64,000 nt of DNA from Amphiscolops sp. MND2022 (GCA_964187785.1 OZ076409.1:51648001-51712000), one strand, 5' to 3'. Counted from the first letter of the stretch, positions 11,828 to 64,000 are shown. A program made the numbers and translations. The notes: a model not told the origin generated them from the letters alone.

Positions 11828-11828
11828 T

Positions 11829-12800: not shown

Positions 12801-12994
12801 ATCTGTAGTCTTACAGTTTTAAAAGATGAGTTCCTGGTTTGAGTCTAGTAGTGGTCTTTTGGTAGTGATTCACTGGTCTTCAGGTTCAGCAATCCGAAGT
12901 GATTTTCCTGCTCTTTATGTTTGGATTTCTATATTGACGCGACTCTTCGTCGTCGCCTCTAGGCTTCCGCTGGGATTCCGTTACAGGATGTAGT

Positions 12995-24375: not shown

Positions 24376-24696
24376 TGTCGCAGTCCGCTCCCGGACTGGT
24401 TTGCGGCTGCAGACGAGTAGGATACGGACGTGGGCACGGCTGTACAACAAAATTGGCAAACAGGTATTTCAGATACTGACTCAAACTGTAGGTAATGATT
24501 AAAATAAACTGTGACTGAAAATGAAAATAGGTCTAGTGTGCGCAAATCTAAAAATGAAAATGGAAACAGAGAAACACTTAGCCAAAATGATTTCATACAT
24601 TTCCGGCAGGACGTTCCCATAACGCTGAATTAAACATTTTCCACCTGAAAATTAAATTAAAAGATGTCTTAGGAAAAGATCATAGACTAAACTAAA

Positions 24697-26594: not shown

Positions 26595-26641
26595 CTAAAC
26601 AAGAATACAGGCACAAATTATCTCCAAACAGAGTACATTAG
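26252..26641 (+). CDS. LTR-encoded Gag N-terminal-like ORF of solo LTR E, reading out through the LTR end
   Basis: The MPEKSQKRK start parallels MSTTRSQKRK; coiled-coil-like segment; frame open across 26594. Confidence 0.5.
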   Translation: MPEKSQKRKLRSDQGTSQEEIENCNASNDENVSLSEQDFEDISNKIENRLSKRLRDTEFGQREILRLIENLASKVDNLSNSVSEQCSSAVHFELETDPIENTGNESINRNASSNTKQEYRHKLSPNRVH

Positions 26642-28077: not shown

Positions 28078-28090
28078 GTATATATAGGAA
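28078..28090 (+). promoter_or_regulatory. Putative TATA box of the LTR promoter
   Basis: GTATATATAGGAA ~160 nt upstream of the gag ATG; counterpart GTATAAATAT in copy C LTR (~57140, minus strand). Confidence 0.5.
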
Positions 28091-28243
28091 GTGCACATTT
28101 TTCTAAGGGACTCAGTCTTTTGCCAGTGCTACAACTTAGTTGTTTCAAACTTGCTGTTCTCAAACTATTCTCATCCTTCTAACCCTGTTGAAAATCAGAA
28201 AGTGAAAATTGAATTCTTCAAGAATAAATCTTTCTTCAACATC

Positions 28244-29686
28244 ATGTCTACAACACGAAGCCAAAAGAGAAAGAATACCCAGCGAGAAGCTGATGATAAT
28301 GTAAGTGAAGGCTTTGTATCGTCAATAAATACGGAAAATTCTCATCCTTTAGATCAAAACGTAGAATTAGCAGGTCCTTCGAGACCCAAGTCCCCAAGAG
28401 TAGAAAATAGTTTCTTGGAAAGCATAAGGCCCTCTCTGAAGGAGGAAATAACGTCCGAGATTAGGACTCTTTTGCTTGAGTCCCAAAAGGAAATGTTGAA
28501 ACTCTTGAGATCTGAAACGAAAGAAAACGTAAGGGATCACGTATCAGAAGAGCTAGAAAATGAAACAAGAAGCTTCTATACTCCGACGAAAACAGTGCGA
28601 ATTAATTCTACCCAAAACGAAGATCATAGCATAATTCGTAACATGGTGACAGGAGTTTTAAACGACTCCACCAATCAACCCAAGAGAACAAAGGTCCGAT
28701 CTCAAAGCCAACCCCCGTCAAAAGAACGCCCAGCAATAACGCGAACTTTGTTCGCCCCAGACCAAAATAACACCACGATGCTACCCATGCCAAAAGCTCT
28801 AACGGCATCACTCCCAACTTTTGACGGGAAATCCGAAAAATTCGAGCTCTTTGAAGACCTCTTCAGGAACAATATCAAAATGTATCGGCACCTTACAGAA
28901 ATACAAAAGATAAACTACTTCCACTCCCTGCTCCGGGGAGACGCCTTACAAGCTTTTTGCAACATTGAAGACTCGAAGAAAGACTCACTAGACGAAATTA
29001 TAACGATATTCGAACGACGATTTGGGGACTACCTGTCGATGGCAAAGGCTAGATGCGAATGGGACGCACTAAAATTTGACCCCTCGACACAAAAACTCCA
29101 CGAATTCCTGGATGTACTACAGAGAACTGCAAAAGAAGCCTTTGGAACAGAGGCACAGCAATTCATAGACAAGGCTATATACGCCAAAATGCCAGACCAC
29201 GTCAAGAAAATACTAAACCGCGCATACCTCGAAGACAAACCCTATAACGACATAGTACTTCACCTGGAAAGGGAAATGCGTCTCAATGGACTAGGAGCGC
29301 CAGACGAGGTAAGGTTAGTGCCCTTAAACAAAATTGAACCTGCCCAAACAAAAACTGAACCTAAACCAGTGGAAACTACCGCTCAAACCACTAAAAAAGG
29401 GTACTGTTTCTATTGTAACAAATTCGGACGTCATAAAGCTGAATGTCGTAAAATGAAGAGAGACAAATGGATGCAAACCCGAAGAAACAACGGACCAACC
29501 AACCACAGTGCAGGTAAACCACCCAAATGCGATACCTGCGGCAAACCCCACAAAACAGAGGATTGTTGGAACGGAGCCAATGCTGCCAACGACCCACGAC
29601 CTAAGCGTCACAACACACAAGAAAGTAAAAGGGACATCAACGTCACTCAATCAACAAACCAACCCGATGATGAATCAAAAAACTAA
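28244..29686 (+). CDS. gag: Gag (480 aa); the first 133 codons lie inside the 5' LTR
   Basis: Intact ORF with LPTFDGKSEKFELFEDLF, YFHSLLRGDAL and zinc knuckles CFYCNKFGRHKAEC and CDTCGKPHKTEDC. Confidence 0.92.
   Translation: MSTTRSQKRKNTQREADDNVSEGFVSSINTENSHPLDQNVELAGPSRPKSPRVENSFLESIRPSLKEEITSEIRTLLLESQKEMLKLLRSETKENVRDHVSEELENETRSFYTPTKTVRINSTQNEDHSIIRNMVTGVLNDSTNQPKRTKVRSQSQPPSKERPAITRTLFAPDQNNTTMLPMPKALTASLPTFDGKSEKFELFEDLFRNNIKMYRHLTEIQKINYFHSLLRGDALQAFCNIEDSKKDSLDEIITIFERRFGDYLSMAKARCEWDALKFDPSTQKLHEFLDVLQRTAKEAFGTEAQQFIDKAIYAKMPDHVKKILNRAYLEDKPYNDIVLHLEREMRLNGLGAPDEVRLVPLNKIEPAQTKTEPKPVETTAQTTKKGYCFYCNKFGRHKAECRKMKRDKWMQTRRNNGPTNHSAGKPPKCDTCGKPHKTEDCWNGANAANDPRPKRHNTQESKRDINVTQSTNQPDDESKN
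28644..28656 (+). promoter_or_regulatory. Primer-binding site TGGTGACAGGAGT (possibly tRNA-Leu type)
   Basis: Directly follows the LTR end ...TAACA; same motif in A, D and the 51-kb fragment. The tRNA identity is inferred. Confidence 0.8.
29677..29683 (+). promoter_or_regulatory. -1 ribosomal frameshift slippery heptamer A_AAA_AAC at the gag-pol junction
   Basis: Immediately before the gag TAA; the -1 frame is open (KLITPRLRFGETVD...) into ORF 29833. Confidence 0.8.
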
Positions 29687-32600
29687 TTACGCCGCGCCTG
29701 CGCTTTGGGGAAACAGTAGACGCGAGGGCATATTCTCCACAAGAACCCCCATTAACGTATACCAACGACACGACTGTAGAGTGCTCAGGCAGCCCATCAG
29801 AAGCATGGCTGAGACAACAAGCAATCGCATCTATGAAACGACACCCGCCACAAGAGGATCAAAAAGTAACACCTCCAAACGATCAGGATTACAGAAACGA
29901 TTGCCGACATCACGAAAAAACACCCTCTCAACCAATCATCACCACCAAAGAACCCGCTGCTCAGACCCAAGGAAACCCAGTTGAAAACGTCCACGACGCC
30001 TGCACTTCGTCACAAATGTCCGAGAAAGATACATACGGCTCCACCGGGTCACCTATCCTCCACGACAACTTCCCCACCTTCCTCAACTCAATTAAAGAAT
30101 ACGTAACTGAAAAAGATGGTAACACTTATATACCACTCCACTCAACAATAGTCCTCAAGAACAGAAGACGAATGCTTTACTTGCCATTGGAATTTGGGGA
30201 ATTAACAATGGACGGCCTTGTCGACTCAGGAGCGTTTATCAATGCCATGTCATGGTCCGATTACAACGCCATTAAAATGAACAGCGATAATTGTGTCATA
30301 AAGGAGTATCCACAACCTCCTTTCAAGGTCGAATGTGCAAACGCACAACTAGAGCAACCTATCGCCACTGCAGACATTCAATTCAATATTGGAACATACA
30401 CGTTCACTGACACCTTTGTCATACTATCAAAGACGTCATTCCCCATAATCGGACTGAACTTCATGAGAAACCACCAAGCAGTAATCGACACAGCCAATGG
30501 GACCATCACCTTCCCTCACGTCGAAATGACACTAGCCATGACAGATGAAAAGAAAAATTGTAACCCCAAACCACTCCAAATTATGGCTGAAGGATATCAG
30601 ACGTTGCCACCACAACAAACAACAACCGTTAATGCAATAGTCATAACCACCAATACAATCGACATCACAGGAGCAGTACAACCGCTCCCACAGTTCGATG
30701 AAACAGCCACCATCATCGTTGCACCAGCACTAGCCACAGCTCACAACAAACGAATCAACCTCCGAATAGCCAACTTGACAGATTTCCCGCACACCATAAA
30801 AAACCACACCAAATTGGCAGAATTACAAATCCTGAGACCAGAGGACACTAAACAAATACGACCTGTAGACGTCGCAACGCTGACCACCTTACAAGATCCA
30901 GATGACACGCACATGTATGTAAATGAGCTCATGAAATCCTCAAACGATGAACGAAACGATGAAAACCTCTGGTTCCTAACACCCGAAAACCCGGGAAATG
31001 AAGATGAACACACACCAATACAAAAACGAATATTTAAGGAAATCAGAGAACTCATAAAAAAAAGAACAACTTGATCCCACCAAAGACCCAGAATCAAGGA
31101 AAGAATTCCTCGACATGTTCAAATGGGAAGGATCACAGATTGAGGGAAACGACAAGAAACAGCTGGAGCAAACGATAGTTGAATACAACGACATCTTTGC
31201 ACGTCACAGACTCGACATCGGCATCAATAAAAGCTTCAAAGTAAAACTGACGCCAAAAGATGAACGACCCATATACACACAGAGCCTGCCAGTGCCGATC
31301 AACCTCAAGGAAGACCTAACAGTCGAATTGGCACTCATGCATAGATATGGCATAATCACGACACTACCATTTTCAAAATAAGCCAGTCCGAGTTTTGCAC
31401 AACGCAAACCAAACGGTAAACTACGTTTACTGGTCGACCTGCGAAAAATCAACGCACTGATATCTGACGATTACATCAACAACAACCACCCAGTCAGCAC
31501 CCTGTCAGACGCAGCCCAACACTTAGCTGGGAAAAGGCTGTTCTGTAAACTAGATTGCTCCCAAGCATACCACTGTCTGCAAATGGCTGACCAGAGATCA
31601 ATCGAAATGCTGGCATTCAACTTCGCAAGCAGAACGTTTGCATATAAACGCCTGGCACAAGGACTGAGCAGAGCATTGTCAGCATTCTCCAGCTTCTTGA
31701 GAGAATACTTGGACAAAGTAATCAAAGCTGACCAGTGCGCGCAATATGTGGACGACATTGGAATAGCCGCCAACTCCGTGACGCAACTGATACGGAACAT
31801 TCGAGCCGTCTTCGAATGCATCAGACAAGCAGGACTTAAACTATCTATCGACAAATGCCACTTTGGAGTGACTGAAGTTGAATTCCTCGGAAGAACAATC
31901 ACTCCGCAAGGAATCGCCCCCCACGACCATTAAATACAAAAATTCTTGGCAAATGTACGATTTCCGAAAACAAAAAAACAAGTACAAAGATACATCGGCT
32001 TTGTCAAATATTATCGCAACTACATCCCGCGATTATCTGAAAAACTACTCGGATTCTATGAGCTACTGAAAGCAGATAAACAGATCAAAATCACTGAAGA
32101 ACTACTCGACCATTACAAGGCGATCAACGCAGCGCTGTCGCAAGCCTGTGGATTGGCTCTCAAACAACCAATTACAGGACGACAATACGTCTTAATGACG
32201 GATGCCAGTTTTCCAGCTTCTGGCTACGCATTAATGATCGAAGAGGACAATGACAAAAAAATCAATTCCAAAAAGAAAACATTTGCCCCAGTTGCATTCG
32301 GATCGAAAGTATTTTCCCCAGCTCAACTGAAAATGTCTATCTATTGCAAAGAATTCTTGGCAATTTCTCATGCCTTCCTAGAATACAGCCACATCCTATG
32401 GGAAGCAACCCTACCGACCCTAGTGATGACAGACAACAGATCAGTAACAAGATTTTTTCAAACAAAAGCGATTCCACCCACACTGTGGAACGCATGTGAC
32501 TACATCCTACAATTCAATTTCCATATCATGCACGTAGCGGGAACGCAAAATACTGCGGCAGACTTCCTCTCAAGAATTGACCTCAATCCCAAGGAACGAG

Positions 32601-34627
32601 TCGAACTGAAGATCCGCGATGATATCACAATACGACCAATACAAGCCAACCTCCAATCGACAGACGTCGCAGATGAAGAACAACTATTTTTTCTTCCCGA
32701 TGAGACCATCGAAACTGAAGAGGAAATCCTACTACGAAAAGAACAAGCTAGATAAAACGCGCACGATGAAGCGCCGGCGAAAATAAAAATGGCCATGCAA
32801 GAAACCACCCCAATACCAATAAACAAAGCCTCATATACCTTTGGCGCAATTAAAGAAGATGCACGCATTAGAGTCGAACAAGACTCAAACTTAGTCTTCA
32901 AGGCAATCAAAAGGAAACTGATTTGCGAAGAATACGACAAACATCTTCTACAAACTGACCCGACAGCTAAACGTCTTCTAGTCCACGAAAACAGACTAAT
33001 AGTCAAAGATGGCATCCTAATGCGTAAATATTACGGTGAATGTGGCCAAGTTACGCACCATCAAATACTCATCCCTGAACACTTGATCACAGAACTTCTG
33101 AAAGCAATCCACGGACAAATGGGAAAACACCCAGGAATCACAAAGATGATCCAAGAGTGTAGATCTAAATACTACTACCCAGGGCTAGCGAAACGCATCA
33201 AACAATAGGTACAACAATGTGAAGACTGCATCAGATATAAACGAATCAGTAACGCTCAAATCAAACCGAAAATGATCAACAACACAGATTACGTCCTAGG
33301 ACCGGAAGACATCCTAGAGATTGACATATTACCTAACCTACCAAACTCTGCGGGATACCAGAATATCGTCACAATGATAGACGTGTTTTCGTTTTCGCGA
33401 TATCTATTTGCCTACCCAACACAGAACGCCACAGCGAGGACGATTGGCCGATGTATTGTCGATGTCATGACAAGGCACGCATATCTGCCGACATTAATCC
33501 TATCGGATAAAGGCTCCCAATTCCGATCAGAAGTTGTTGCAGAAATAATGCAAATACTGGAAATACAAATCAGTCATGCTTCCACTAAACAGGCTCAAAC
33601 AATCGGAATACTGGAAAGAACTCACGCCTCAATCAAAACGGCACTGAAAATATCGACGGGTAAACGACGCTCAATGTGGCATAAATATGTCCAAATCGCA
33701 GTGATGAACTATAACACAACCTACCATGAAACGCTAGGCTGCGAACCTTCCACAGTATTCCATGGACGAATACCGTACAATATACTGGACCTAAAATTGG
33801 GCATCAGACCAAAATGGAAAACTTCATCTAATTCCGACCTAGTCGAACAACTACAAAAACAGATTGACGAAGTGCGTGCCACGGCAAAGGACAATATTAT
33901 GTTGTCTTATCTCAAATACAAAAAGTACTATGACCGCAAAGCATCTGCAGCCCCACTGAAAACAAACGATTATTGCTACATACTCAACCCGAAAGCCGAC
34001 AACCAATCGACAAAATTCGCATTCCAAGATTGCATCTGGACAGGACCGTATATAGTGATAAAAGTACTTCCAAATAACAACTATACGATCCGAAAAATCG
34101 GCACGAGATACACAAAAACGCTACATCGCATTAGAATACGACCTTACATGCCAGAAAAACGATTGCCTGACGTCACAGTACGGGCAAACGAATATCTTCC
34201 AGATCCGGACGTCAAAGTGTCGCACAACGAATGGTACGCTGTATCGTGGGAAATGGATTTTGGCAAACAAATAGACGAACACGAAGCGACAAGAAGTTCA
34301 GAAAACAATCAGCAGATAATCACACAAGAAGTGGCGAACACGAATGACGACACGATGACGCAACAATTATCAGACAATCAAAATGACGACACACATGACG
34401 TGGCACCGACGTCTCCAGATTTTTCAAACCTCACTACTGACGTAGGGGATAATCCATATATACGACGTCCCCCACCCACTGAAAGTCCACCTATTCCCCC
34501 AAAATCACCGCCTACAGTTGTCGGTTATAATCCGAGGCAAACAGCAAAATACAATTTACGACCTAATCCTAAACCTAACGCTAATCCTGACTTCAGAAGA
34601 CTTGACGCTATCACTATGACTCAATAG
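29680..34627 (+). pseudogene. pol: Pol (protease, RT, RNase H, integrase) with one frameshift and four premature stops
   Basis: LVDSGA, LDCSQAY, QYVDDIGI, VLMTDAS, HHCC, EIDIL/SDKGSQF/ILERTH and WTGPYIV. Lesions: A-run near 31060 and stops at 31379, 31931, 32753 and 33206. Confidence 0.95.
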
Positions 34628-34864
34628 AAAAGCAAATATCAGGAGTCCAGACCGAATCGATCTGACTATTTTCAATTCATAGCATACTACGACCATTCTT
34701 TTTTCTCCTTTGATTACCAATATTTTGATTCTCCAAGACAAATTACTTTTAATCAAGAAAATAATATCTAACAAACTGATAAGAACAACATAACAAAACG
34801 CCCGAAGACGCAAAGAAATTATACAAAAATCAACAAACAGTTTACAAATCGAGTACGGCAAATT

Positions 34865-37800
34865 CTATTGTTTCTTTGTGGCGGCATCAGAACTCTTCCG
34901 GGTGGCCCTCTTCGCAGACACTTTAGATGAATCAACAGCTCGCTTCGACCCAGATCCAGTGTTTTTCTTTCGACCCAATAATGAGCCAACACTGCTATAT
35001 AAATGTCCCTTCTCAGGAGTTGCAGCAACAGAAGAACCCACAACAGATGATGATGGACTCTCCGAACATGACACAGTTGACACGTCGCCCCCCTCACCAG
35101 CTAGCATTTTTCGCCCCCGCTTATTGGCATGACGCAGATTAGAATACGACTCCCCTTTCTTGCGACTAAGGAAGGCATTAAACAATTCAAGATATCGTGT
35201 AACAAATGACTCCTGACCACCGCAGCAGATACGCTCCCAAGGATCATAGGAAGCCAAGTTCATGAAATCCTGAGCCCCATTTATAGCATTTCGGACGCTA
35301 TCCATCGTATGTTTCGTAAAGAAGGCTTTCTGCTTGTAATTTGATGACAAAACACAACTCTGCACTCCACGAATACACGAAGTAACAGTCCAATACGGCA
35401 CAGCACAACCCGAAAGGTTAATGTCTACGTCAGGGTATTTCTGTCGAGGTTTCAGGACAACTAAACAGCACAATTCAAACACCCGGCACAGTTTCTTGCG
35501 GGCCAGAAATGAGTAATCTCCCAGCAGATAAGAGACGACATCAGGAATATTCTCAGCGACCTCATCACTGGTGGCATGACGACCTCGGACGTCCACAACA
35601 AATGTACGCAACTCTTCAACAGCTGACTTGCACTCTACGTCTGAAATAACTCCGCAACGCTCCAAACGTCGAGCCAATTGATTAAACAAGTCAAACACAT
35701 ACTTGTCATCCCCTTCCAACAGGAGTCCGGGGCAGAAACAAAATAAGCCACTCGTAAACTCAGACGACGCTGCCTGTTGTGCCAAGATCAGTTCCACAAA
35801 ACGATCGATAAATTCACGACAACGATCTTGAAAGTCACGACCCTCACTCCCTTTAAATTCACGCAGCATTGCACCAAAATCATAGTTTTGCAAGAATTCG
35901 GCTGTTGGTATTACCTCAAACTGAGACAACTTGGACACGTCCATATACTCTTCCCATGCATTGACATTTAGCAGCGACGAAACATGACGACTACGTGACA
36001 ACAGACAATACACTAGTTGACATAGTTCCATATACGCATGGAAGCCATAATCTGCGCGTCTTTGCTGCTGCTTCTTGAAACAAACTGCGTCTAAACACAT
36101 CAACCCTACTACATCTGCCTTTCAACAAAACGAGACGAAACGCAGACGACAACTTACAAAGTTCTAGGACATGTTTGAGCAGACCCAGACGGAACACATT
36201 CGTAGTTTCGGTGAAAACCAGCCAGTCCACACCTCGCATCTGAAACAAACCCAACTACCTCAAATCTCACTACCAAAATAACCCAACTTTGCCAACCCCA
36301 ACAGACCTCAAAGAAAAAACAAAAAGAGGGAAGGATACAAAAAAAGAGAAAAAACAAAACTTACTCTGTCAGAAGAGCTCTTCAGGTGCCGAGCCCCAGT
36401 GTAGCGAACATATTCTTTGACGAATTTCCACACAAGAATCAGTTCCGAGACGAAGCCACACAAGTCAGCAAAGGGTACCCGCCCAGCAACACTACAACGA
36501 CGAACGACGGTCACGTCCTCCGTCCACGGCTCTTGGAGTGCCCCGCGCAGACGTAACACCAGAAAGTCAACCATTGAAGTCACCTCGAGCATGCCGAAGA
36601 CCTCTCGATGAGCCTCTCGGAAACATTGCAGAAAGGCCTCCTCAGAGAATTCCTGACCCAAAACGAACTGCCGACCATCAACTCGATTGTCACTAAGTAC
36701 ACGCAACAAAGACGCACTCCCTCCTTGACACGACATGGGCAATTGGCATGACACAATACTGTCAACCACACGAGACAAACCAGCCAGCTCTGAGTTGGGG
36801 ATTTTCTGTCAGACGCCTCAACATGGACACAGACACAAAACAGCTCATGACCATCCCAAGTCTGTACATAACAGCTATGCGACGTCCCATCATCTACGAA
36901 AAACACACTGTAGTCGCGGAAAGCAGTCACACGTGCGATCATTGATCGAAGTACACGAGGGAACAGGGCTTGACAGATCAGCGACTAAAACAACAAATTA
37001 CCAACGCTCAACACACGGAAATCCCAATACCTACAGACTCATTCAAACACTAGAATCTGCTTCAAGCCAACGATACAACTACGATACACCCCCCCTAAAA
37101 AGCATGATAAAACATACGAAAATACTAACCAACGACTCTTCTCGACTCCACTTTAGACTGTACAGAGGATTTTCCGGCCCCAAAGTAGCACGAAAACAGC
37201 CCCACAACTTTCGCAATAAAGTGTAGCTGCCACCACTGCGCAGGAGTTCCAGTGAACAAGTCACTAGTGTCAACAAAGGAACCGATGAATCGACCTGAGT
37301 GCATGCGGGCAACAGATCCTCCGGGAAGCTGAATCCCTCGGCTTTCCCCTTGCAGGGACGACTTCGATAATCCTCCAATTGCGTATCTGTCAGCTCCATT
37401 GGATCCATCAGCCGATTGAACACAGGCAAATTATTTTGAACGCGATAAGTGACGTCCAATTGCCAATGCCGCTTGCCAAAGAAATGTCGACTGAACTCCA
37501 ATGCACCACGAGACTACATTGAAACGTCACGGTGACAAATCATACAGAAGAAATGTTTGTCACAGCCAGTACTGGACCCGCTGACAAACAACTGGTAGAT
37601 GGGGTTATCACCTATCATGTCGCGACGAAGACGTTTCCGCATACTGTACACTCGTTTTCGTTGCCGCTGAGGTGACGAATTCTCCTCTAAACTGGCCTCG
37701 ACACGACTCACGACCTCCTGAAACCCTATAAACACAAAACTTCCTTTAATCAAAAGAAATCACGTCGTACGTGGACCACCAGCATACAATCCCAAGATCA

Positions 37801-38980
37801 CGACTCGGGATATAAAACTACCCGGAATTTCCCTCAATTCAACTACTAACAGAGAGGATGAACAAGACAAAAATTCGCAATCGAAACTACTCAAATACAA
37901 CAATACTCACGAGCAACAAAAGGCTCCACTGTCCGACTCTCCAATTCAGAAGCCACAATCTCTCCCAATCTAGCAGCCTGCTGTGGCGTACAAGGCAAGG
38001 ATGCATCAGGAACAGCCTCTTCATCAGACGTCTCAAGCTGGAAATCACTCCGCTGCAGTACTGTTCCACTCTTGTCCACCCGACGTTGTTTAGAAGTCGA
38101 CTGGACCATCGCATCATCACTGGGTGACACCACAGTAACTATAAACACAACACCCAAAGCCCAATTACAAAGAACGTCAACATGACACAACCCCACCCAA
38201 ATACACATACACCATAAATACTATCAATCTACACACAAGAACTTACCATGTTTAATGACAGGCGATGCAGTCTGACTCCCAAATGTTGGCTCAAACCCAG
38301 GCAAATATGCAGTAAATCGTGGGGAAGGCGTTTGTTGGGCACTGCGGGAATTTCCCCCTCTCCAGTTTTTCCCGGCCGGGGGGAGGAGCCTCACCTACGT
38401 GAGTCGGAGGGGTACAGACACCGACAACAGGAGACTCTGGTGTTGGCAGCCTCGCTGTTTCTTCAGGAGCCCCAGTAACTTTATCCTCGACTCTGCCAGA
38501 AACCAATTTAGACAAAGGGACATCAAGATCAGCTTGCGGTGACGCAGGCGGATTGAGCATCCCAGAAACAGTCTCCAAAGGAACAATCGTACCACTCTCT
38601 AGGGGTATAACCCCAACGGAAGAAAGATCAGCTGGTAGCGGAGCAGTTTCAAGACCAGAAAGAGTGTGAAGGGAGGCAGGAGTGACGTGAACAGCACCCT
38701 CTAGGGAAGAAACAAGAGCCGATCCTGGCACTAAAACGAAATCCCACATTCGACGCGTCAGAAAAACTAAGCTATGAAAATACAAAACAGAAAAGGCCTA
38801 TCTGTCAAAAGTATATTTCATGGAAGCTTAAAGGAAAGTAGGGATAGCAAACCAACCAGGTGCCGGCCGGACAATTCGATTATCACTCTCACTGTCACGA
38901 ACATCTCCTTCCGAAAATGCAAACTGCGTCTCGTTGCCACTCACAGCTCCTGGATCAATACGACCACGGGACGTAGACAT
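34865..38980 (-). pseudogene. Antisense 7-exon cargo gene of copy B (~1120 aa, degenerate hAT-transposase-like); exons 38980-38857, 38730-38247, 38138-37911, 37725-37130, 36984-36365, 36239-36158, 36090-34865
   Basis: All introns are GT-AG with phases matching copy C. Three lesions: frameshift near 38360, TAG at 37514, and a 1-nt deletion near 36803. Confidence 0.88.
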
Positions 38981-38999
38981 TGCAAAGCGATGAATCTGA

Positions 39000-39420
39000 A
39001 AAGTCAGAGGTGAAAACAACAACCGAAAATTTGATGTCATCAAAACGGTGACAAAACATAAAGTTGTCTAATAACCAACGAAAATGGCGTCGACATAACG
39101 TCGACAAAAAAGGTTATCAGGATTAGGAAATTAATCCCATTTCCTAAAATGACGTCATCAAAACGGTGACAAAATCAGAAGTTAGCTAAGCTAACAAAAT
39201 GACTTCAGCATAACGTTGACAAATTTGACTAAACGAATTATTTTAATTTGCAGCCAATAAAAACTCGACGTCGTCATAGCGACAATAATAAAGACTGAAA
39301 ACGATTAAAATGATTGTTTAACCAATCAGAATAGAGGGATTTATCCCAATATTCGCCTTAATCCCTAATAATCCTAAATTCATTGTGGAACAATCAAAAC
39401 GAAGAAATCAGCTGATAAAG
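39000..39420. promoter_or_regulatory. Putative bidirectional promoter between the antisense gene and ORF3
   Basis: Head-to-head ORFs; TGACGTCA and GACGTC palindromes, CCAAT boxes (~39254, ~39322) and an internal duplication; motifs conserved in copy C. Confidence 0.6.
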
Positions 39421-39427
39421 AAAGAAG

Positions 39428-40186
39428 ATGAGCAATCTCCTTGACATTTATGAATTAATCGACATATCCTCGTCAAGTGAGGAAGAAGGTGAAATTGAAA
39501 GGGGATCCACCCCGCTACCAAGAGACAGTCAGGTGAACCCCAGGATAATATTTGAAATTCCCCACTCGTCAGCAGAGGCGACGGCAGACGATGGAGAATA
39601 CCTCGATTTGTCATTAGACTCACTGGAAACTGACTGTAAAAGAATGAAGCTGAGCGATTCTTATACCAGCTTCGAATCGGTGGAATCTGGGGAGTATCCT
39701 CATTCAACTGACTCTGGAGAAGCACCAGCCGACTCTCCTGAAAGCCTTGATGAACAAGAAAAGGGGGAAGATAACAGCAGCCTAAGTTCCGGAGTGTTCG
39801 TTGTGGAAAGACATTATGCTCACAGCTCTAAATCAGTAACGAGCACGAACGTTGCGGACTATTTAGAACATGTTGTCCGAGAAGATGCAAGTTCTTTTTT
39901 CGTCACTCCTCCGGGACCATTAAGAAGGGTCAATCTTCGATTGATAAGCCCACTGAACGACCTAGAAGAAAAAGGGACAGCAGCAACAAGTTCTAAAAGG
40001 AATAACAACTACAAACAGTTCCAGCATCAGCCGTTCCAGTTCTGCCAACCCGGGAGAGCCTTTCGCCCCATGACAGTGGCCCTGTCACAGTCCGCTCCCG
40101 GACTGGTTTGCGGCTGCAGACGAGTAGGATACGGACGTGGGCACGGCTGTACAGCAAAATTGGCAAACAGGTATTTCAGATACTGA
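39428..40186 (+). CDS. ORF3: 252-aa acidic, Ser-rich protein with a CGC..GxGRGHGC tail encoded by the first 104 nt of the 3' LTR
   Basis: Intact; colinear homolog at 59022..59753 in copy C. Confidence 0.85.
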   Translation: MSNLLDIYELIDISSSSEEEGEIERGSTPLPRDSQVNPRIIFEIPHSSAEATADDGEYLDLSLDSLETDCKRMKLSDSYTSFESVESGEYPHSTDSGEAPADSPESLDEQEKGEDNSSLSSGVFVVERHYAHSSKSVTSTNVADYLEHVVREDASSFFVTPPGPLRRVNLRLISPLNDLEEKGTAATSSKRNNNYKQFQHQPFQFCQPGRAFRPMTVALSQSAPGLVCGCRRVGYGRGHGCTAKLANRYFRY

Positions 40187-42444
40187 CTCAAACTGTAGTT
40201 AATGATTAAAATAAACTGTGACTGAAAATGAAAATACGTCTAGTGTGCGCAAATCTAAAAATGAAAATGGAAACAGAGAAACACAGCCAAAATGATTTCA
40301 TACATTTCCGGCAGGACGTTCCCATAACGCTGAATTAAACATTTTCCACCTGAAAATTAAATTAAAAGATGTCTTAGGAAAAGATCATAGACTAAACTAA
40401 ACAAGAATACAGGCACAAATTATCTCCAAACAGAGTACATTAGCTGGATCTAAAATGGAAAAACACTTTGAAATATATAGAGAGATTACGCCTCGTCAAA
40501 ATAAGGCAATTTAATTGCGTTTGAACAGCAATTAAAGTGGTTTAGGACGCACGGATTGCGCAAAGCAAACAATACGGCAGTGAGAACTTGGCTACATGTA
40601 TATTTGTCGTCTATAGGGCGCAGACAAGTTTTGAAGGTATACTAAGTGACGTCACTGCCTCGTCTATGCATACCAAAATTCATTCCAATTATCCTCCTAT
40701 ATCACCCACTATGCTAGAAAATCAATCCGATTTACCGCCTGCGTGACGTCACAATACTCGTAACTAGCTGTTAACTTGTCTCAAAATATGCGTCAACGAT
40801 GCGGCAAACTTGGCAGAGTTCAGTATTGCCAAGAAAATGCGTCACAGTGACGACGACAAGTTTATGAAATTAGTTGGAAATAGGTAAATCTGTCAAAATA
40901 ACCGGTTTTATCCTCATGTTTAATTCGCAGTTTCATAAGGAAAATGATAATGGCTTTTCTTAATCCGCAATGCAGACGTTTCGTCAATGTTAAGCTATCT
41001 GAAATTTCACACTTAAAACATATCTGATATAGGTGTAGTATAAAATCCAGTTAGTGCGTTAGTTAGTCGTCATGCATTTTTTGACAATAGAGGAAACCTA
41101 CCCGGATATCTTTTAAATGAGATTTCACATGAAGTTAAGCAAAGGTCACAGTTTATACTCACGTTCAGTGCGGGTAAAATATATTTTGTACCCAGAAATG
41201 TATTTTCATAAGTTTGTACCTTTTACTTTCAATTTGGCAAATATGTACATGATAATTGTTGATGCAATCATTTTCTTATCTACGTTCCCCTAATGGGTTT
41301 GGAAAATGTTGTGCTGATGACGAAATTACAGTTGTGAAAGTGCTAATTGTTGTTATACTATTGGTTTTGTAAAATGTGACGCAATTGATGCGACAAACCA
41401 AGTTTTGTATCTGTTTTATTCTTTATTTTGTTGGAAATTCATGAATGTTAACTTTATTTCTATACTTGTGTTAATCGTCCAAAATATTCTCCGAGCATCG
41501 ATTAAATAATCCTAGTTTGGAATTTGTCATTGCATTTTTATCAAGTTGAAATTCAAAATCAGGTATTAGTTGTTCACGTCAGCGTCATCTCAGCGTCAAT
41601 TTCCCGCGAACCGAAGCAGCAAAACAGGGAATTATTTCCGGTTTGATAAACTGAAGTAATATCTACTTCCTGCTCGGGAGGAAGCAAAAGGACGCCGGAA
41701 TGAAATGATATGAATATGTGTGATGACTAATACTAAAAGTAGAACATCGTGTCTCAAATTTTGTCGAATTGTCGACGCACTTTTGGGATTTTGATGATTT
41801 TTTCACCGAAAAAACAGGAAATGACTAATCATTTTAAAGAATTTGGGAATATGTACGTGATCAAATGATGCTAGGAGGGTATATATAGGAAGTGCACATT
41901 TTTCTAAGGGACTCAGTCTTTTGCCAGTGCTACAACTTAGTTGTTTCAAACTTGCTGTTCTCAAACTATTCTCATCCTTCTAACCCTGTTGAAAATCAGA
42001 AAGTGAAAATTGAATTCTTCAAGAATAAATCTTTCTTCAACAACATGTCTACAACACGAAGCCAAAAGAGAAAGAATTCCCAGCGAGAAGCTGATGATAA
42101 TGTAAGTGAAGGCTTTGTATCGTCAATAAATACGGAAAATTCTCATCCTTTAGATCAAAACGTAGAATTAGCAGGTCCTTCGAGACCCAAGTCCCCAAGA
42201 GTAGAAAATAGTTTCTTGGAAAGCATAAGGCCCTCTCTGAAGGAGGAAATAACGTCCGAGATTAGGACTCTTTTGCTCGAGTCCCAAAAGGAAATGTTGA
42301 AACTCTTGAAATCTGAAACGAAAGAAAACGTAAGGGATCACGTATCAGAAGAGCTAGAAAATGAAACAAGAAGCTTCTATACTCCCACGAAAACAGTGCG
42401 AATTAATTCTACCCAAAACGAAGATCATAGCATAATTCGTAACA
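40083..42444 (+). repeat. Copy B 3' LTR (2362 bp)
   Basis: TGTCACAG...CGTAACA, followed by TSD TGGAC. Confidence 0.95.
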
Positions 42445-47760: not shown

Positions 47761-47897
47761 AAATCAGATACTCCAAGACCCAGTTCTTGGGCAATCTTCT
47801 GTTGTCTACCAACGAGTCGTCTTCTTCTAGTCCGGGTCGTCCACCAACGAGTTGTCCGGGTCGTCCACCATTGAGTTGTCCGGGTCGGCGGACCAAA

Positions 47898-56542: not shown

Positions 56543-56995
56543 CTAACATCCGTAGACAAGCAAGCCTCTAAAAAATCCGTGTTCGTCTCTCCATTGACTG
56601 TTACGACATACTATTGGGTCGTTTTGAGTAGAACTTATTCTCACTGATTTTGTGGGAGTATAGAAACTTCTGGTTTCCTCTTCTACCTCTTCATCGGTAT
56701 TTTCCCTAATAATCCCTCTTGTTTCAGGTTTGAGGAGTTTTAACATCTCTTTTTGAGATTCAATAAAAAGATTCTTAATCTCTGACGTTATTTCTTCCTT
56801 CAATGAGGTTCTCAAGCTTTCAAAGAGATTATTTTCAATCCGGGGGGATTTAGGTCTGGAAGGCCCCGCTACTTCATCGTCCTGATTCAAAGAACAAGGA
56901 TTTCCTACTACTATGGGTGAAATCAAGCCTTCACTTACGTTCTCACTGGTGCTTTGCTGATCGTTCTTTCTTTTTTGGCTTCTTGTTGTTGACAT
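56543..56995 (-). CDS. LTR-encoded Gag N-terminus of copy C 3' LTR, reading out into flanking DNA
   Basis: MSTTRSQKRK...AGPSRPKSPR...SLKEEITSEI...ETRSFYTPTK is homologous to B gag residues 1-133; it diverges after the LTR end at 56599. Confidence 0.7.
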   Translation of the reverse strand: MSTTRSQKRKNDQQSTSENVSEGLISPIVVGNPCSLNQDDEVAGPSRPKSPRIENNLFESLRTSLKEEITSEIKNLFIESQKEMLKLLKPETRGIIRENTDEEVEEETRSFYTPTKSVRISSTQNDPIVCRNSQWRDEHGFFRGLLVYGC

Positions 56996-59125
56996 TTTGT
57001 AGAAAAGTTTGATCTTGAAGAATTGTATTCCTTTCAAAGATTTTTCTGACAAAGTAGAACAAGGTGAGAGTGAAATTGAAAATTCAACTGAATTATACAA
57101 TTGCAAAAGACTGAGTCCCTTAATCATCAAATCCTATCATATTTATACCCTCCCAGCATCATTTGATCACGAACAAAACCCTAATTTCCCTTGAACAATT
57201 AGTCATTTCCTGTATTTTCGATGAAAAAATCATTTTGTTCCCAACTTTACGTCGACATTTCGTCAATTTTTGAGACACGATGATCTTCATTTAGTGTTAG
57301 TCATCAAATCTGATCATATCATTTCATCTCGGCGTCCTTTTGCTTCCTCCCAAGCAGGAAGTAGATATTACTTCAGTCTGTCAAACCGGAAATGCTTCCC
57401 TGTTTTACTGCTTTGGTTCGCGGGAAATTGACGCTGAGATGACGCTGACGTGAACAACAAATACCTGATTTTGAACTTCGCTTTGATAAAAATGCTATGA
57501 CTAATTCCAAAATAGGAATATTTGAACGATGCTAGGACGATATTTTATGAATTTGGACTCAATCCTATGCTAGAGATGAGAATGAAATCATGATATGAAA
57601 ATAATATTTGTTAGCGACTTTGTCATGTCGTGTCAAACACGACAAGATTTACAAAATTAACAGCAACGTTTGTTAAATGACAACACCAACATGACGTAAA
57701 TAACTGGACAGCAACGAATGGATTAATATAGAAAACGTGATTACAGCCACAAATACAGCGCTCAATGTTGTAGAATACGAAAATGCAAAATACATGAAAA
57801 ATACATTTCTGGTACATAATAAGCTTCTAGTTGGAGAGAATAAACTGTGACTTCCTAATTAATCTACTGTGGAATCTTGTAATAAGATGGTTTATGCACG
57901 GAAGTTCTCTTCTTGTTAAGAATACATGATTGTTACTTAACGTGAGGTTGAAATTATCCTACATGTGTCAAAACGCATCCTAAATTGGGACCTTAAACCA
58001 TGGAAAATCGACAATACGTTCATTATACAATTTGCAACAGTCTGCAATTTTCTTTCCTTAAGAAATAACGGCTTTTATGCGATGAAAACTTGACTAAATT
58101 CAGCAGATTCATTCACTTTATTCAATTTCATAAACTTGTCAACGTCATGTTGACGAGTTTTCTTGACAGAGTTGAATTTCATAAACTTGTCAACGTCATG
58201 TTGACGAGTTTTCTTGGCAGAGTTGAATTTCATAAACTTGTCAACGTCATGTTGACGAGTTTTCTTGGCAGGGCAGAGATTTTGACTAGTTTGACGCAAT
58301 GCTGCCGAGTACTTTAGAAATGAGTCTCTCGCTAGCTACCGGAGCAGTGACGTCACAGTGGCGGTAAATTGGAATGGTTTCTAGCAATGCTATTAGTATA
58401 GGCGGATAATTGGAATGATTTCCTGGTACGCTTATGCGAGGCAGTGACGTCAATTGGTATGCCTTCAAACTCGTCTGCGTCTTACTGACGACAAATATAC
58501 ATGTACTCTTGTTTCTTTCGCCGCTTTGTTTACTCAGCGCAGTATTGACGTCCTAAATCACTTTAATTGCTGTTCAAAAGAGTAATTAAGCTGTCTTTCT
58601 AAGAAAAGGCTTAACTACCACGGTGTGTTGTCTCACTGTAATTTCCTGATTTAGGTCCGAATGAAATGTAATTTCTCGGGATTAGTTTTGATGTATTTTC
58701 ATTTAGATTAGCTTATGGTCTCTTTATTCTTGGGATAGTTTTATTCTGATTTTCAGGTTGTGAATGTTTCATTTGTCGTGGTTGACTCGTCCAGCCAAAC
58801 ATGCGTGAAATCATTTTGGATTATTTTGCTTCCTTATTTCATTTCCGCCCAAATTTGCGCGCGGTAAATGTGTATTTTACATTTCCGGTACTATTTTATT
58901 CGATTTTGTGAGAGCATGAAAAATTTAGAACGCGTTCACTAGTTTTATTTGGGATTTTTGCTAGGCAAAAGTATTATTGCGTTTCAAGTCACAGTTTATT
59001 TAAATTTAGTTAGAGTTTGAGTTAATAGCCAAAATACCTTTTCGTGAGTCTTGCGGTGCACCCATGTCCACGCCCAAAACCAACTCTCCTGCATCCGCAA
59101 TCCAGTCCGGGAGCGGACTGTGACA
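56599..59125 (-). repeat. Copy C 3' LTR (2527 bp)
   Basis: TGTCACAGTCCGCTCCCGGAC start at 59125, CGTAACA end at 56599, no PBS after it. Confidence 0.9.
58127..58272. repeat. 51-bp tandem repeat (~3 units) in copy C LTR
   Basis: TTCATAAACTTGTCAACGTCATGTTGACGAGTTTTCTTG(A/G)CAGAGTTGAAT units. Confidence 0.9.
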
Positions 59126-59753
59126 GGGCCACTGTCATGGGGCGAACGGCTTTACCGGGTTGATAGAAGTCGAACGCCTGTTGCAGGTGATTTTCGCGAG
59201 TGTAGTTTTCCTTGGCTTCGTCTAGCGCTAATTTCGGCTCCTCCAGATCGTTTAGAGGACTAGTTGTCAGCAGATTTATTCTTCTCAGCGGACCAGGGGG
59301 CGTGACAAAGTATGAAGAGGCGTCTTCTTGCTGCACCTTCTCCAGATATTCGGCTACTTTGCTACTTGTTACTGATTCGGTTTGTACAGCTGGGGCTTCT
59401 ACTATGAATATGTCCGAAGACAAGCTTTCATCGGGGCTTTCCGGGGAGTCAGCAATAACTTCTTCGGTCGACTCAGAGTGGGGGTATTGTCCCGATTCTA
59501 CTGTTTCAAAACTAGAGAACGACTCACTCAGCTTCATTTTCTTGCATTCTGTTTCTAGTGAATTTACCGATAGGTCGAGGCATTCCTCTTCATCTGCGTT
59601 CGCCTCTGCTGATGAGTTCAGAATTTCGATGACCAACCCCGGATAGGCTCTGCTGTCACTAGGTATTGGGGTAGACGATCTTGTTATTTCGCCCTCCTCC
59701 TCGCTTGATGACGAGATGTCGATCAGTTCGTAGATATCTAACAAGTTGTTCAT
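59022..59753 (-). CDS. ORF3 homolog in copy C (243 aa)
   Basis: LLDIYELIDISSSSEEEGEI, LETECKKMKLS, YFVTPPGPLRR and RPMTVALSQSAPGLDCGCRRVGFGRGHGC are conserved with 39428..40186. Confidence 0.85.
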   Translation of the reverse strand: MNNLLDIYELIDISSSSEEEGEITRSSTPIPSDSRAYPGLVIEILNSSAEANADEEECLDLSVNSLETECKKMKLSESFSSFETVESGQYPHSESTEEVIADSPESPDESLSSDIFIVEAPAVQTESVTSSKVAEYLEKVQQEDASSYFVTPPGPLRRINLLTTSPLNDLEEPKLALDEAKENYTRENHLQQAFDFYQPGKAVRPMTVALSQSAPGLDCGCRRVGFGRGHGCTARLTKRYFGY

Positions 59754-59759
59754 TCTGTG

Positions 59760-60270
59760 ACGAAATTTCTTGGCTGCTATGTTTCGAGTTTGATTGTTTC
59801 ACAATGAATTTCCTCGGATATTTAGGATTACTGAGAATGTTGGGATAATTCCTTCATTCTGATTGGTTAATCAATCTTTTTAATCCTTTCGATCTGCAGT
59901 TGTTGACGTTATGTCGACAGCTCTTTTTATTGGCCAAGAAATTGAAGTAATTCTTTTAACCAAACTTGTCAACGTTATGCTGACGTCATTTTCGCTAGCT
60001 TAGCTAACTTTTGTGATTTGTCACCGTTATGATGACGTCATTTTAGATTACAGGATTAATCTCTTAATCTCTATAACCTTTTTGTCGACGTTATGCCGAC
60101 GTCAATTTCGTTGGTAATTAGCCAACTTTCATTTTTGTCACCGTTATGATGACGTCATTTTAGGGTATTGGATTAATTTCTTAACCCAGATAACCTTTTG
60201 TCGACGTTATGCCGACGTCAATTTCACTGTTGTTTCCACGTCTCCTCTTTTTCAGATTGCTGTTGAAAAA
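59760..60270. promoter_or_regulatory. Putative bidirectional promoter of copy C
   Basis: ATTGG boxes (~59862, ~59929), TGACGTCA at ~59981, ~60033 and ~60150, and a tandem duplication of a ~117-bp block. Confidence 0.6.
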
Positions 60271-60277
60271 GAAAAGA

Positions 60278-63200
60278 ATGTCGTCTCGCCGAGTTGAATC
60301 TGGTTTCCAGAGTGGCCACGAGACTCAATTTGTCTTCTCTGAAGGAGATATTCATGAGAGCGATGCGGATCTCGATCGTCGACCAGCCCTTGGTAGGATT
60401 TTTATTCCCGCTTTCCATTAAGCTTTTGCGAAATATACTTTTGATAGTTAGGCCTTTTCTATTTTGTACTTTCGCAGCTTAGATTTTCTGACGCGTCGAA
60501 TTTGGGAATGTTGTTTCAGGGACTGTTCTGCCTGGTTCTCTTGTCGAGGATCCTGCAATCTCTCCCGGGGTTCCTTTGCCCGGCGATCTCTCCACAGTAG
60601 TGCCTGCGTCTTTCTCTGTTCCTGCCGCTCCTGCTGGTACTGGCGATTCCTCCATCACTTGTCAGGATGATCTTGATGTCCCGTTGTCGAAGCTGCTTTC
60701 CCGGTCTGAACTCCCTCATGTAGGTGAGGGTGATCCCCTCGCCAAGGAGAGGAAGGAGACTGCTGGGCAGACTTCGGAGTCTGCGTTACACAAGACGCCT
60801 TCGCCACGGTTTTCGTCATTCCTCGGTGGTTTCAGGGATGGACGAGAGCTTCAAACGGGGGGTCCAGGAATTGGACATGGTTAGTGACTGTTACGTGGCT
60901 TTCTTTCCTCTTTTCCTTCTCTTTTTTTTCATCTGGGTGTTGCTAGGTTTGTTGTGTATTTGCAGTCGTGTAAATTGGGTAATTTGTATAGGGTCTACAT
61001 CAGTTTGTGAGGAGGAGCCTGTTGTGCAGAGCTCGTCGCGGTGTCTGCGCTCCCAAAGTCGCAGTGAGGTCCTCGCTTCCAAGGGTACCCGTCGAGTTCT
61101 ACGATTTGAGCTTGACAGTGACGGTGACGTTACTGATGCGCCAGCATTGCCTTGTACCCCCCAGCAGGCAGTGCGTCTGGGAGAGATGTTGGCTTCGGAA
61201 TTGGAGCATCGAACAATGGAACCTCTTGTCACCCGTTAGTTTGTTTGTTCATCATTTCATTATCATTTTTTGTTGTGTTTTTTTTCTTTTTTCTTTTTTT
61301 TTTTGAAGAGCTTGGAGTTTTTGGTGGTGTTCGTCTGGTATTCAAGTGCTCTTTGTTGTTACACTATAGTTGTCTGGTGTTTCTAGGGTTCCAGGAACTT
61401 GTGGCTCGAGTGGAGACGAGTTTGGAAGGCACTCTGAGGCCTCAACGCCAGCGTAGGCGAGTGTATAGTCCACGCAACCGTCTTCGCCGAGATATGATTG
61501 GTGACAATCCGATCTATCAGTTGTTCGTCAGCGGCTCGAGCACTGGATCAGACAAGCTGTTCTTTTGTAAGATTTGTCATCGGGACGTGTCTATGGAGTC
61601 GCGTGGGGCGTCAGAGTTTGCCCGACATTTCTTTGGGAAGCGACATTGGCAATTGGACGTGACGTACCGAGTGCAGCACGATCTCCCAATTTTCAATCGT
61701 CTGATGGACCCAATGGAGCTGAGTGATGCTCAGGTGTCGGATTATATGAGTCGCCCGAGCAAAGGTCTGGCAGAAGGTTTTAGTTTCCCCAAGGATCTTC
61801 TTCCTGCCTGTACCCGTGTGGACTCATCCGTTCCCTTGATGACAATGATCAATAGTGTGCTAGAGCTGTTCCGCTGTGGGGGGAGCTACACACTGTTGAG
61901 GAAGTTGTGGGGGAGCTTCCGAGCTACTCTGGGCCCTGAAGAACCTCTGTTCAGTTTGAAATGGGATCGAGCTGAAACTTTGGTAAGATGTCTTATATTC
62001 TGTAACATCATATATAGTTTATTTGTATTTGAACGTGTGGTTCTTTGATTGTAGGATTTGTCGTCGATTCCTTGGTTTTGGAGGTCTTGTTTCGTTTTAG
62101 TCGTTAATCTGCCAAGCTCTGTTTCCCCGAGTATTGCGGTCACTCGTGTCATGGATCTCGTCTTTCCGAGAGTATAGTGTCTTCTTCGTCGACACAGCTA
62201 CAACGCAGGAGTGTTTTGTCCATACCTGGGATGACAATGCGCTATTCTCTGTTTGCATTCGCGTGGAGCCTGCTGGTCAGCGTGTACCCGTGAGTGAGTT
62301 GGCTGGGCTATCCCGTATCATGGACAGTGTGCCTTCATGTCAGTTGCCTCTGTCGTGTCAGGGTGGTAGTGTGTCATTATTGCGTGTCCTGAACGACAAC
62401 CGCATCGATGGGCGACAGTTTTTGTATTGCCAAGAATTTACAGATGACAGTTTCCTGCGGGGGTATCGTCTAGCAGAGCAGGAGATCTTCGGAAGGCTTG
62501 ATGTTGCCTCTGTGATCGACTTTGTGACGTTGCGCTTGCGGGGTGCGCTTCAAGAGGCATGGATGGAGGGAACGCCTGCTCTACGACGTTGTGTGCTGTC
62601 TGGTCACGTTGCTTTTGCTGATTTGTGTTCAGTAGCATCAGAACTTGTGGCTAATTGGAAGATTGTGCGTGAGTTCGTACGATTCACGGGTCCCGGTCAT
62701 GCCAGATGTGAAGTCGATAAGGTGAGTTCCACGTGATTTGTTATAGTTAGGGCAAGAGGGGTGGAAATCGTACTCTTTGCAATTTGTCATGTTGTTTCGA
62801 ATAATAGGGAAGGGAGGGGGTGTCCTATATTAAATATTATCATACAGTTGGGGTTTTGTTTCGTTGCAGATGCGAGGATTGGATTGGCTGATTAGCAGTG
62901 ACACCACGATCGTCTTGCGTCTTGGACTACTTTGCCACGTCCTTGATCTCTGTAAGTTTTTGTCGTCTTTCGTGAGGCAGTTGTTATAGTGTTGTTTTGA
63001 TGCTTATAGTTGCTCCTAGTCACCAAGACTTCATTATAGTGTTTGGTAGGGGGTTGTTCTGATATGGTGTTGGGTTTTAGATGCAGTTTCCTTCAAAAAG
63101 CGACGTGTCGGACGTGCTGACTATGGTTTCCACTACTACATGGAGTTGAGTCAGTTCATCTATGGGTTGTTATCCCGTAGTCGTAAGAGTGTGTCACTGC

Positions 63201-64000
63201 CTTCATTGAACTCGTGGGATGACTACATGGACTCTTCGAAGCTTGCTGCCTTGGAGAAAATATCTGCCGACGATTTCCTCGCAAATTACGAGTTTGGGGC
63301 GACTTTGCGTGATTTCAAAGGTGGTGAGTCGCGTGAGTTTCGTCGTCAGTGTCCCAATTTTATTGACCGCTTTGTGGATGCTATTTTTACCCGATGTCCT
63401 GTAGCCGCAGATCTTTTGCGTTATGCCTATTGTTTCTGTCCCGAGTTGTTGCTGGAAGGCGGGGATGAATATATCTTTGGCCTGTTCAATGACCTCGTCG
63501 CGTTATTGGGACGATGCAAGGTGATGAGCGATGCTGAAGTTAGTGGTGCCACAGAAGAGTTTTTGTCGTTCGTAGTGGATGTTCGTTCTCGGCATAGTAG
63601 TGGTGACCAGATTGCTGAAGATATCCCCGATGTAGTTTCGTTTTTGTTGGCTGATTACAGTTTCCTGGCCCGCAAAAATTTGTGTCGAGCATTTAAGTTA
63701 TGCTGCCTGGTTATTCTGAGACCACAAAAGAGTTTCCCTGCTGTTGACATCGATTTATCCAATTGTGCCGTGCCTGAGCCTGTGGTGTCGTCTTGTGTCC
63801 GCGGTGTACAGAGCTGTGTGTTGTCGGCAAATTACAGTCAGAAATCGTTTTATACGAAGCATACCATGGAATCGATCCGCGATGCTATTGTCAATTCACG
63901 TGCTTTTATGTCTCGGGTTGATTTTGATCCATGGGAGAGAATTTGCAGTGGTGGGCATGGCGGCTTTGTAAATCGATATACTGCATTGTTCAAAGCTTAT
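60278..64000 (+). CDS. Antisense 7-exon cargo gene of copy C, intact up to the window edge; exons 60278-60392, 60520-60879, 60992-61234, 61387-61982, 62101-62721, 62870-62951, 63081->64000
   Basis: Manual splicing at GT-AG sites gives one open frame with no stop. Zinc finger CKICHRDVSMESRGASEFARHFFGKRH. Exon 4 (596 nt) and exon 6 (82 nt) are the same length as in copy B. Confidence 0.9.

Follow-up and report, generated by a model that had tools for sequence, protein, structure and literature searches.

An antisense gene of a gypsy retrotransposon in Amphiscolops sp. is very probably a captured hAT transposase

It looks as though a mobile element of one kind has taken over an enzyme from a different kind and tamed it as a helper. 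In Amphiscolops sp. MND2022, a gypsy retrotransposon carries, on the strand opposite to its gag-pol, an open gene whose product resembles hAT DNA transposases along most of its length and, judging from the aligned residues, no longer has their active site. The gene begins near the end of the stretch analysed here (GCA_964187785.1 OZ076409.1:51648001-51712000; 64,000 nucleotides, hereafter the window) and belongs to an element that we call B; a related full-length copy, element A, lies at 24376..42444 on the plus strand. The gene is real, and its origin is an unexpected one.

The antisense gene of element B consists of seven exons joined across GT-AG introns of 112-152 bases, and its 1089 codons contain no internal stop. 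An earlier sequence-only reading had proposed a spliced protein of about 1,100 amino acids (aa), and all of the motifs it quoted do occur in order in this one frame: FCKIC at aa 299, GKRH at 323, GGSYTLL.. at 404, FSLKWDRAETL/SLICQ.. at 428 (spanning an exon join), YSVFFVD at 463, LSCQGGSVSL at 522, GLDWL at 648, FRRQCPNFI at 759, CFCP at 790, LCRAFK.. at 873 and YTKHTMES at 930. All exons are on the plus strand. Coding exon 1 (60278..60392) encodes aa 1-38; exon 2 (60520..60879, aa 39-158) is variable and of low complexity, and exon 3 (60992..61234, aa 159-239) is likewise variable. Exon 4 (61387..61982, aa 240-438), the most conserved part, contains a C2H2 zinc finger (C300, C303, H320 and H326; 61566-61646), a linker and the beginning of a hAT-type dimerisation/DNA-binding region. 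The RNase-H-derived core is encoded by exon 5 (62101..62721, aa 439-645), which is followed by exon 6 (62870..62951, aa 646-672). Exon 7 (aa 673-1089) starts at 63081, passes the window's last position (64000) and ends 333 bases further on, at window-relative 64333; it holds a helical insertion domain, a PxVD string (63737-63748) and a basic, Ser-rich tail.

Three core intron positions recur in copies ranging from 99% down to ~40% identity, with the same phases wherever phases were read out, and intron lengths across copies range from 66 to 174 bases. Eight of the 22 first-round gene models outside the B group were left out for several stops, and one mid-clade locus has no model. The six introns occur in two clades. 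Another clade has none in its core, and this intronless-core branch has single open frames of 838-923 codons that are collinear with exons 4-7, and the exon joins are therefore independently confirmed. Because the genomic RNA of a retrotransposon is the opposite strand to these antisense introns, the introns survive retrotransposition. A membrane segment was absent from the three proteins examined, in which the maximum 19-residue hydropathy was only 1.55-1.75; this result and the antisense orientation ruled out an env reading.

Element B is a full-length gypsy element with a gag interrupted by a large insertion. Its 3′ LTR (56599..59125, minus strand; 2527 bp, TG...CA) adjoins one copy of the 5-bp target-site duplication (TSD) TTGAC (56594-56598), the second copy of which adjoins the far LTR. 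The 5′ LTR, L187:4234-6760, lies outside the window, ~41.6 kb from the 3′ LTR, and the two are 99.565% identical over 2527 bp; the counterparts of element A's gag-pol are also outside the window. The antisense gene is located between pol and the 3′ LTR, and it and the gypsy integrase end tail-to-tail beyond the window. Element A has LTRs at 24376-28643 and 40083-42444 (98.1-98.6% identical), the first of them containing a nested solo LTR (24697-26594), and is flanked by the TSD TGGAC. Its PBS is at 28644 and its gag-PR-RT-RH-INT, identified with Pfam, at 28247-34627 on the plus strand. The antisense gene of A (34865..38980, minus strand) has the same exon plan as that of B and has decayed: exon 4 is interrupted by a stop, and exons 2 and 5 have shifted frame. 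Between A and B, the gag-pol DNA is 81% identical and the core of the antisense genes 64-72%.

A pair of TG...CA LTRs with a short TSD in A, B and a third element (L106+107; LTRs 99.5% identical, TSD CTCAG), as well as Pfam matches to gag and then PR-RT-RH-INT in that order in element A, identify the carrier as Ty3/gypsy. A TGGTGACAGGAG PBS lies next to 13 of 30 LTR ends, the remaining 17 being host-side. No clear purine run was seen ahead of the 3′ LTR in the three copies inspected (A, B and L106). LTR pairs that are 98.1-99.6% identical indicate that the carrier was recently active. The source genome measures 1.07 Gb.

The association of gene and carrier, claimed beforehand, proved stable. 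Among loci picked by integrase likeness, the antisense gene was found on the opposite strand in 30/30, and among loci picked by the gene itself, which were drawn from the best-scoring candidates only, it faced the integrase in 46/47, 20/20 and 18/18 (overlapping sets), locus L154 being the one exception. A first look at the genome gave 5,900-11,100 candidates, which are candidate tallies and not copy numbers.

A pattern search with one motif of the sequence-only reading found four places in the genome, one of which is a 432-aa transposase fragment. With this fragment, 143 proteins were retrieved from many animal phyla; of the 120 taken as the donor family (P0001-P0120), 116 members were aligned after the four longer than 900 aa had been dropped. 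The motifs D211, D278, C310xxH313, R378W379 and E662 are kept in 111-116 of the 116. Compared with a profile of six canonical hATs of the same genome, the donor profile matched at 90.7%, each of the five motifs (D, D, CxxH, RW and E) falling in register, and the first member of the canonical profile matches Hermes (4D1Q) with an E-value of 2.5e-30. The nearest named Atlas clusters of the donor family are of hAT/Buster type (Buster/ZBED5/FAM200-like, 0.91-0.94). A sequence search with the donor family itself gave no Pfam hAT or Hermes match. On these comparisons, the metazoan donor family is hAT.

The hAT-like character of the antisense protein, suggested by the earlier reading, was recovered by profile comparison. 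The 116-member profile scored all 14 spliced antisense copies at 24-43 bits, compared with at most 5.0 bits in 294 shuffled or reversed sequences. In hhalign, an antisense alignment of 26 rows from three clades matched the donor family at 98.4% (E 4.7e-15, 529 columns), as one local alignment that extends from the zinc finger through the insertion domain, the latter giving the strongest donor-family match. A 49-row antisense alignment reached 98.5% locally and 99.6% globally, and natural unspliced pieces 97.4%. Controls with reversed profiles, gypsy integrase and unrelated profiles gave 0.1-0.3%, and the antisense profile did not match the canonical hATs directly (0.2%), indicating that the link to hATs runs specifically through the donor family. 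Spliced or full-length profiles were needed to see it: single-exon profiles gave nothing significant against 918 ORFs from hAT loci, and no longer protein came up in a word-indexed search with exon 7. A Pfam search gave no family for the exons or the full-length intronless members and no BED match for the zinc finger; a PDB sequence search with the antisense family returned 0 matches. One could argue that the likeness is partial or coincidental, the helical domain and zinc finger being of other origin, since antisense-to-donor identity is ~15%, the RNase-H part alone found no match with a small profile, and the Atlas hits for P0227 reached only 0.81-0.85. However, those Atlas hits too point to hAT-related families, the match is a single collinear alignment, and 10 bits are exceeded by 90 of the 116 donors, the reversed control peaking at 1.2. 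We consider coincidence highly improbable and a hAT origin of the antisense gene very probable.

Catalytic positions were counted in 32 full-length rows, 17 fragment rows having been dropped. The column of the first catalytic Asp (Asp1) contains Q in 10 rows, R in 8, E in 5, V in 3, L and K in 2 each, and M and H once each, and never Asp; in element B it is Val468 (62188-62190; posterior 0.96-0.97). The Asp of 'FFVD', a motif quoted in the reading from sequence alone, is the next residue and aligns with the E of the donor 'FDE'. The replacement of the second Asp, noted in that reading, was recovered as Gln525 in B (62359-62361): DG is absent at this position from 32/32 rows, the residue that precedes a mostly conserved Gly being Q, R, L, V or another, in a weak register. 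The degeneration goes further than first described, Asp1 being lost as well. RW occurs in 0/32 rows and its Trp alone in 32/32; its equivalent is 'EAW' with Trp592 (62560-62562; posterior 0.77), not GLDWL as had been supposed. The reported absence of CxxH and ERxFS stands nearly throughout, with CxxH in 1/32 rows at a non-equivalent spot and an ExxFS-like string in 1/32, although a trace of the second may be left: PxV[D/E] at aa 892-895, after an 'L..V.K' helix, is acidic at column 895 in 28/32 rows and may be a relic of the catalytic Glu, with which it aligns at a posterior of only 0.2. The Asp2, CxxH and Glu regions as a whole were aligned at low posteriors (0.13-0.23). All four zinc ligands (C300, C303, H320, H326) persist in 31-32 of the 32 rows (H326 in 32/32), and the first three align with donor zinc ligands at posteriors of 0.98-1.0. 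H268 and W319 are described as essential in Hermes (PMC5225508). Could the protein be a live nuclease with a rearranged active site? The invariant Trp592, the acidic column 895 and the conservation of some other acidic columns in the family speak for it, but the Asp1 column is never D, DG and RW are gone, the sole CxxH is misplaced, and the donors keep the catalytic motifs almost without exception; we find this barely credible. In all likelihood the antisense protein is catalytically dead.

Pairs of antisense genes were compared by the Nei-Gojobori method, and the gene is under strong purifying selection. Seven between-subfamily pairs (dS 0.97-2.3) gave dN/dS values of 0.07-0.10, and an eighth, more distant pair 0.18; near-identical pairs gave 0.19-0.51, and three pairs were saturated. 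Integrase dN/dS was 0.03-0.09. The zinc-finger/DNA-binding part yielded 0.01-0.02 in the three pairs where it was measurable, and the clades share 42-43% of residues across the zinc finger and dimer region, compared with 28-29% across the RNase-H-derived and other core and 14% along the tail. Both selection and conservation single out the DNA-binding part as the feature retained, and the gene almost certainly encodes a functional protein.

The antisense family spans at least three deep clades, and integrase and antisense trees recover the same three, so the capture predates their split. Within clades the antisense cassette has been swapped; one pair has an integrase dS of 0.02 and an antisense dS of 2.3. 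In a quick tree with 14 sampled donors, the antisense family formed one group on a very long stem, and no root among the three clades, hence no intron polarity, was obtained. A profile search retrieved 647 proteins at E ≤ 0.001, some of which are 98-100% identical to copies in this genome; in the searches run, others are at most 36-53% identical to them, which hints at other host genomes. Scans of metagenome and viral contigs found no relative.

A second extra ORF accompanies the antisense gene. In element B it occupies 59022..59753 on the minus strand (243 aa, acidic, low-complexity), co-oriented with gag-pol and divergent from the antisense gene; its N-terminus has the SIM-like string LIDISSSSEEE, and it ends inside the 3′ LTR. 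In element A, a SIM-like acidic ORF (39428..40186, plus strand) runs into the 3′ LTR. An ORF of 217-347 codons that points away from the antisense gene and heads towards or into the 3′ LTR was present at every locus examined. It starts with [LV]I[DN]ISS[SD]E, which we take to fit the phospho-SIM pattern, in 13 of 15 intron-branch copies, several of them near-copies of one another; the motif occurred in 119 of 4400 shuffles, and its strict form in 0/7 second ORFs of the intronless branch. The spacer between the divergent ORFs (59754..60277) contains repeated TGACGTCA/TGACG units, a CCAAT box common to B and A, and a conserved splice-acceptor-like site right before the ATG; we infer that it is a candidate bidirectional promoter. 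TGACG-rich repeats in the LTR and spacer number 21-34 per region in the B clade, compared with 7-18 in other clades. The TGACGTCA repeats are also ordinary CREB/ATF sites, and host factors could therefore explain them. LTR type and antisense type were not seen to travel strictly together: the B-type LTR occurs with three antisense types that are mutually only ~57% identical, which argues against a strict lock-and-key within the B clade.

The best reading of these data is a non-catalytic DNA-binding accessory factor that would act on its own element, possibly together with the second ORF. An ancestor of this gypsy lineage would have acquired a hAT gene, most simply through a hAT insertion in antisense between pol and the 3′ LTR; this inserted hAT would have lost its ends and active site, and its gene would have been retained for the DNA-binding parts and selected since as an accessory gene. 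The protein would be made from a spliced antisense RNA initiated in the spacer or the 3′ LTR, enter the nucleus and, as a dimer or oligomer, bind without cutting to the repeated motifs of its own LTR and spacer, in the manner of hAT transposases on subterminal repeats. Bound there, it would keep cognate elements transcribed in the face of host silencing, possibly with the help of the divergent SIM-bearing ORF. That the protein regulates the expression of its own element has, in our estimate, about an even chance. A more elaborate version, towards which we are sceptical, would be a two-gene counter-silencing module driven by a bidirectional promoter beside the 3′ LTR, in which the dead hAT protein recognises the repeats of its element, an acidic partner binds SUMO and so disables SUMO-dependent silencing at that place, and the cassette is swapped between subfamilies as in an arms race.

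Other roles compatible with the same origin were weighed. The protein might serve integration by binding cDNA ends or chromatin and escorting or tethering the integrase complex: transposases bind element ends, the zinc finger and basic clusters are retained, and the gene was in every copy examined. Against this, the 17 host-side flanks of B-type LTRs shared 0 sequence matches and their TSDs are varied, a result that gives no support to sequence-specific integration targeting and with which a chromatin-type insertion preference would be compatible; moreover, the gene has been swapped between near-identical integrases. We regard an integration role as unlikely. Equally, a dead transposase that binds DNA can repress, so the protein could be a brake that holds down the copy number of its own element, or could poison host hATs in a dominant-negative way, and thereby spare the host. 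Members of the donor family occur in this genome, and some viral proteins encoded in antisense, HBZ among them, are regulators (PMC11963269), but the lineage is hugely amplified, to thousands of first-look candidates, and recently active, and the very long stem that separates the antisense protein from the donors makes co-assembly with donor transposases unlikely; a brake is distinctly doubtful. An action on RNA or in reverse transcription (RNA export, packaging, plus-strand priming) instead of at chromatin is improbable: zinc fingers can bind RNA, and priming may be atypical given the missing purine run, yet the gene is on the opposite strand, is not fused to Gag or Pol and is most conserved in the transposase DNA-binding region.

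Compared with hAT transposases, the antisense protein of this preferred accessory-factor reading has a collinear zinc finger, dimer region, first RNase H strand, Trp and insertion domain, whereas it has lost Asp1, Asp2, CxxH and the Arg of RW and has an extra low-complexity N-terminus and a basic tail; it is not part of a TIR element, since an LTR element that makes 5-bp TSDs carries it along as cargo. Transposases have become non-cutting DNA or chromatin regulators in the host-domesticated hAT proteins ZBED1, ZBED6 and DAYSLEEPER; here, in contrast, another mobile element would have done the domesticating, and the gene exists in many copies that are diversifying. HBZ and APH-2 are bZIP-type proteins. 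These nuclear regulators, which HTLV-1 and HTLV-2, respectively, encode in antisense close to the 3′ LTR (PMC11963269, PMC7264820), are unrelated and belong to true retroviruses. VANC of VANDAL MULEs is presented as a TE accessory protein proposed to act on repeats of its own element (PMC6719617); its home is the DNA transposons of plants, and it is related to MAIN (PMC13547354). The parallel lies in an accessory protein that would act on own-element repeats, and clade-specific repeats are present in the antisense-gene carriers, but VANC activity is proven and that of the present protein only inferred.

The closest counterparts in position are the aORFs of plant gypsy elements (Grande gene23, RIRE2 and Retand TRP28/PF04195), which are also antisense, located between pol and the 3′ LTR and nearly ubiquitous. 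In the accounts cited, they are present in nearly all copies and proposed to be nuclear or DNA-binding regulators, and their origin is called unknown, with no likeness to other TEs noted there (PMC7264820, PMC11963269). The present gene differs in its animal host, in its six introns in two clades and in an origin traceable to a whole hAT transposase; without TRP28 (PF04195) or any other Pfam domain, it is, unlike Retand-type aORFs, not a member of that group. Captured nucleases, esterases and host proteins, as well as VANC, have been described (PMC5408684, PMC6431247, PMC13547354, PMC6719617). The literature searched contained no report of a transposase captured by an LTR element, and an earlier annotation of one is possible.

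The origin and role of the accessory ORFs that LTR retrotransposons carry in antisense are a persistent puzzle, and this case gives one such ORF a traceable origin, in which a class II transposase would have been domesticated by a class I element. With thousands of candidates, several clades and clear selection, the question of origin and role becomes testable. The antisense introns, present in two clades and missing from one core, provide a natural test case of intron gain and loss in retroelements. If it is true that the protein protects its own element, animals would here have an equivalent to VANC of plants.

The start of gag was located within the LTR both in the full-length gypsy element A (window 28247-28643) and in gypsy element B (window 56599-57000). 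Because the gag reading frame begins inside the LTR and continues through the PBS, both LTRs hold ~130 gag codons. None of three copies (A, window 40065-40082; B, window 59126-59140; and a copy at another locus, L106:2091-2115) has a clear polypurine tract in front of its 3' LTR, and in these copies coding sequence of the second accessory ORF lies at or near this position. The LTR of B also carries 51-bp tandem repeats (window 58111-58273), and the repeats of the spacer (59941-60230) have a core in common with them.

The branches of the antisense gene with an intron-free core (loci L104-L113, L090-L095 and L154-L156) sit in a separate gypsy clade, the integrase of which is 41-54% identical to that of A. 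A 1.9-kb solo LTR (TG...CA, with a CTAAA duplication) is nested inside the 5' LTR of A at window 24697-26594, and its end matches the end of the intronless-clade LTR. The hAT donor family of the antisense gene (P0001-P0120) is widespread among animals, and a Pfam hAT match was absent in all 16 of the members tested. The same genome holds a decayed copy of this family at L079:1030-2325 (-) and further decayed copies at L076-L078. At L033-L034 (G000:C11:36.97 Mb), a tandem duplication of ~3.2 kb takes in the integrase together with the final exon of the antisense gene.

A third related gypsy is present as fragments at window 3780-15330. At window 16864-21395 lies a pair of direct repeats of 1.5 kb (97.8%), which contain 58-bp tandem arrays and terminate in the LTR-terminus sequence of the lineage to which A and B belong. 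A 344-codon ORF (window 22362-23396, (-)), hydrophobic in its C-terminal half, gave only a weak Pfam lead. In a small element at window 44196-48611, 714-bp direct repeats (99.3%) flank an ORF of 805 codons that encodes a Bel/Pao-like DUF5641 domain; no RT was found in this element, and a 24-bp tandem array is also present in the region.

The second accessory ORF is acidic in both A (window 39428-40186, (+)) and B (window 59022-59753, (-)). A SIM-like motif was present at its N-terminus in 13 of the 15 intron-branch copies, and the middle-clade ORF has a basic NLS-like stretch. This ORF is exchanged independently of the antisense gene: some copies match B at 97% identity in the second ORF, yet at only ~50% in the last exon of the antisense gene.
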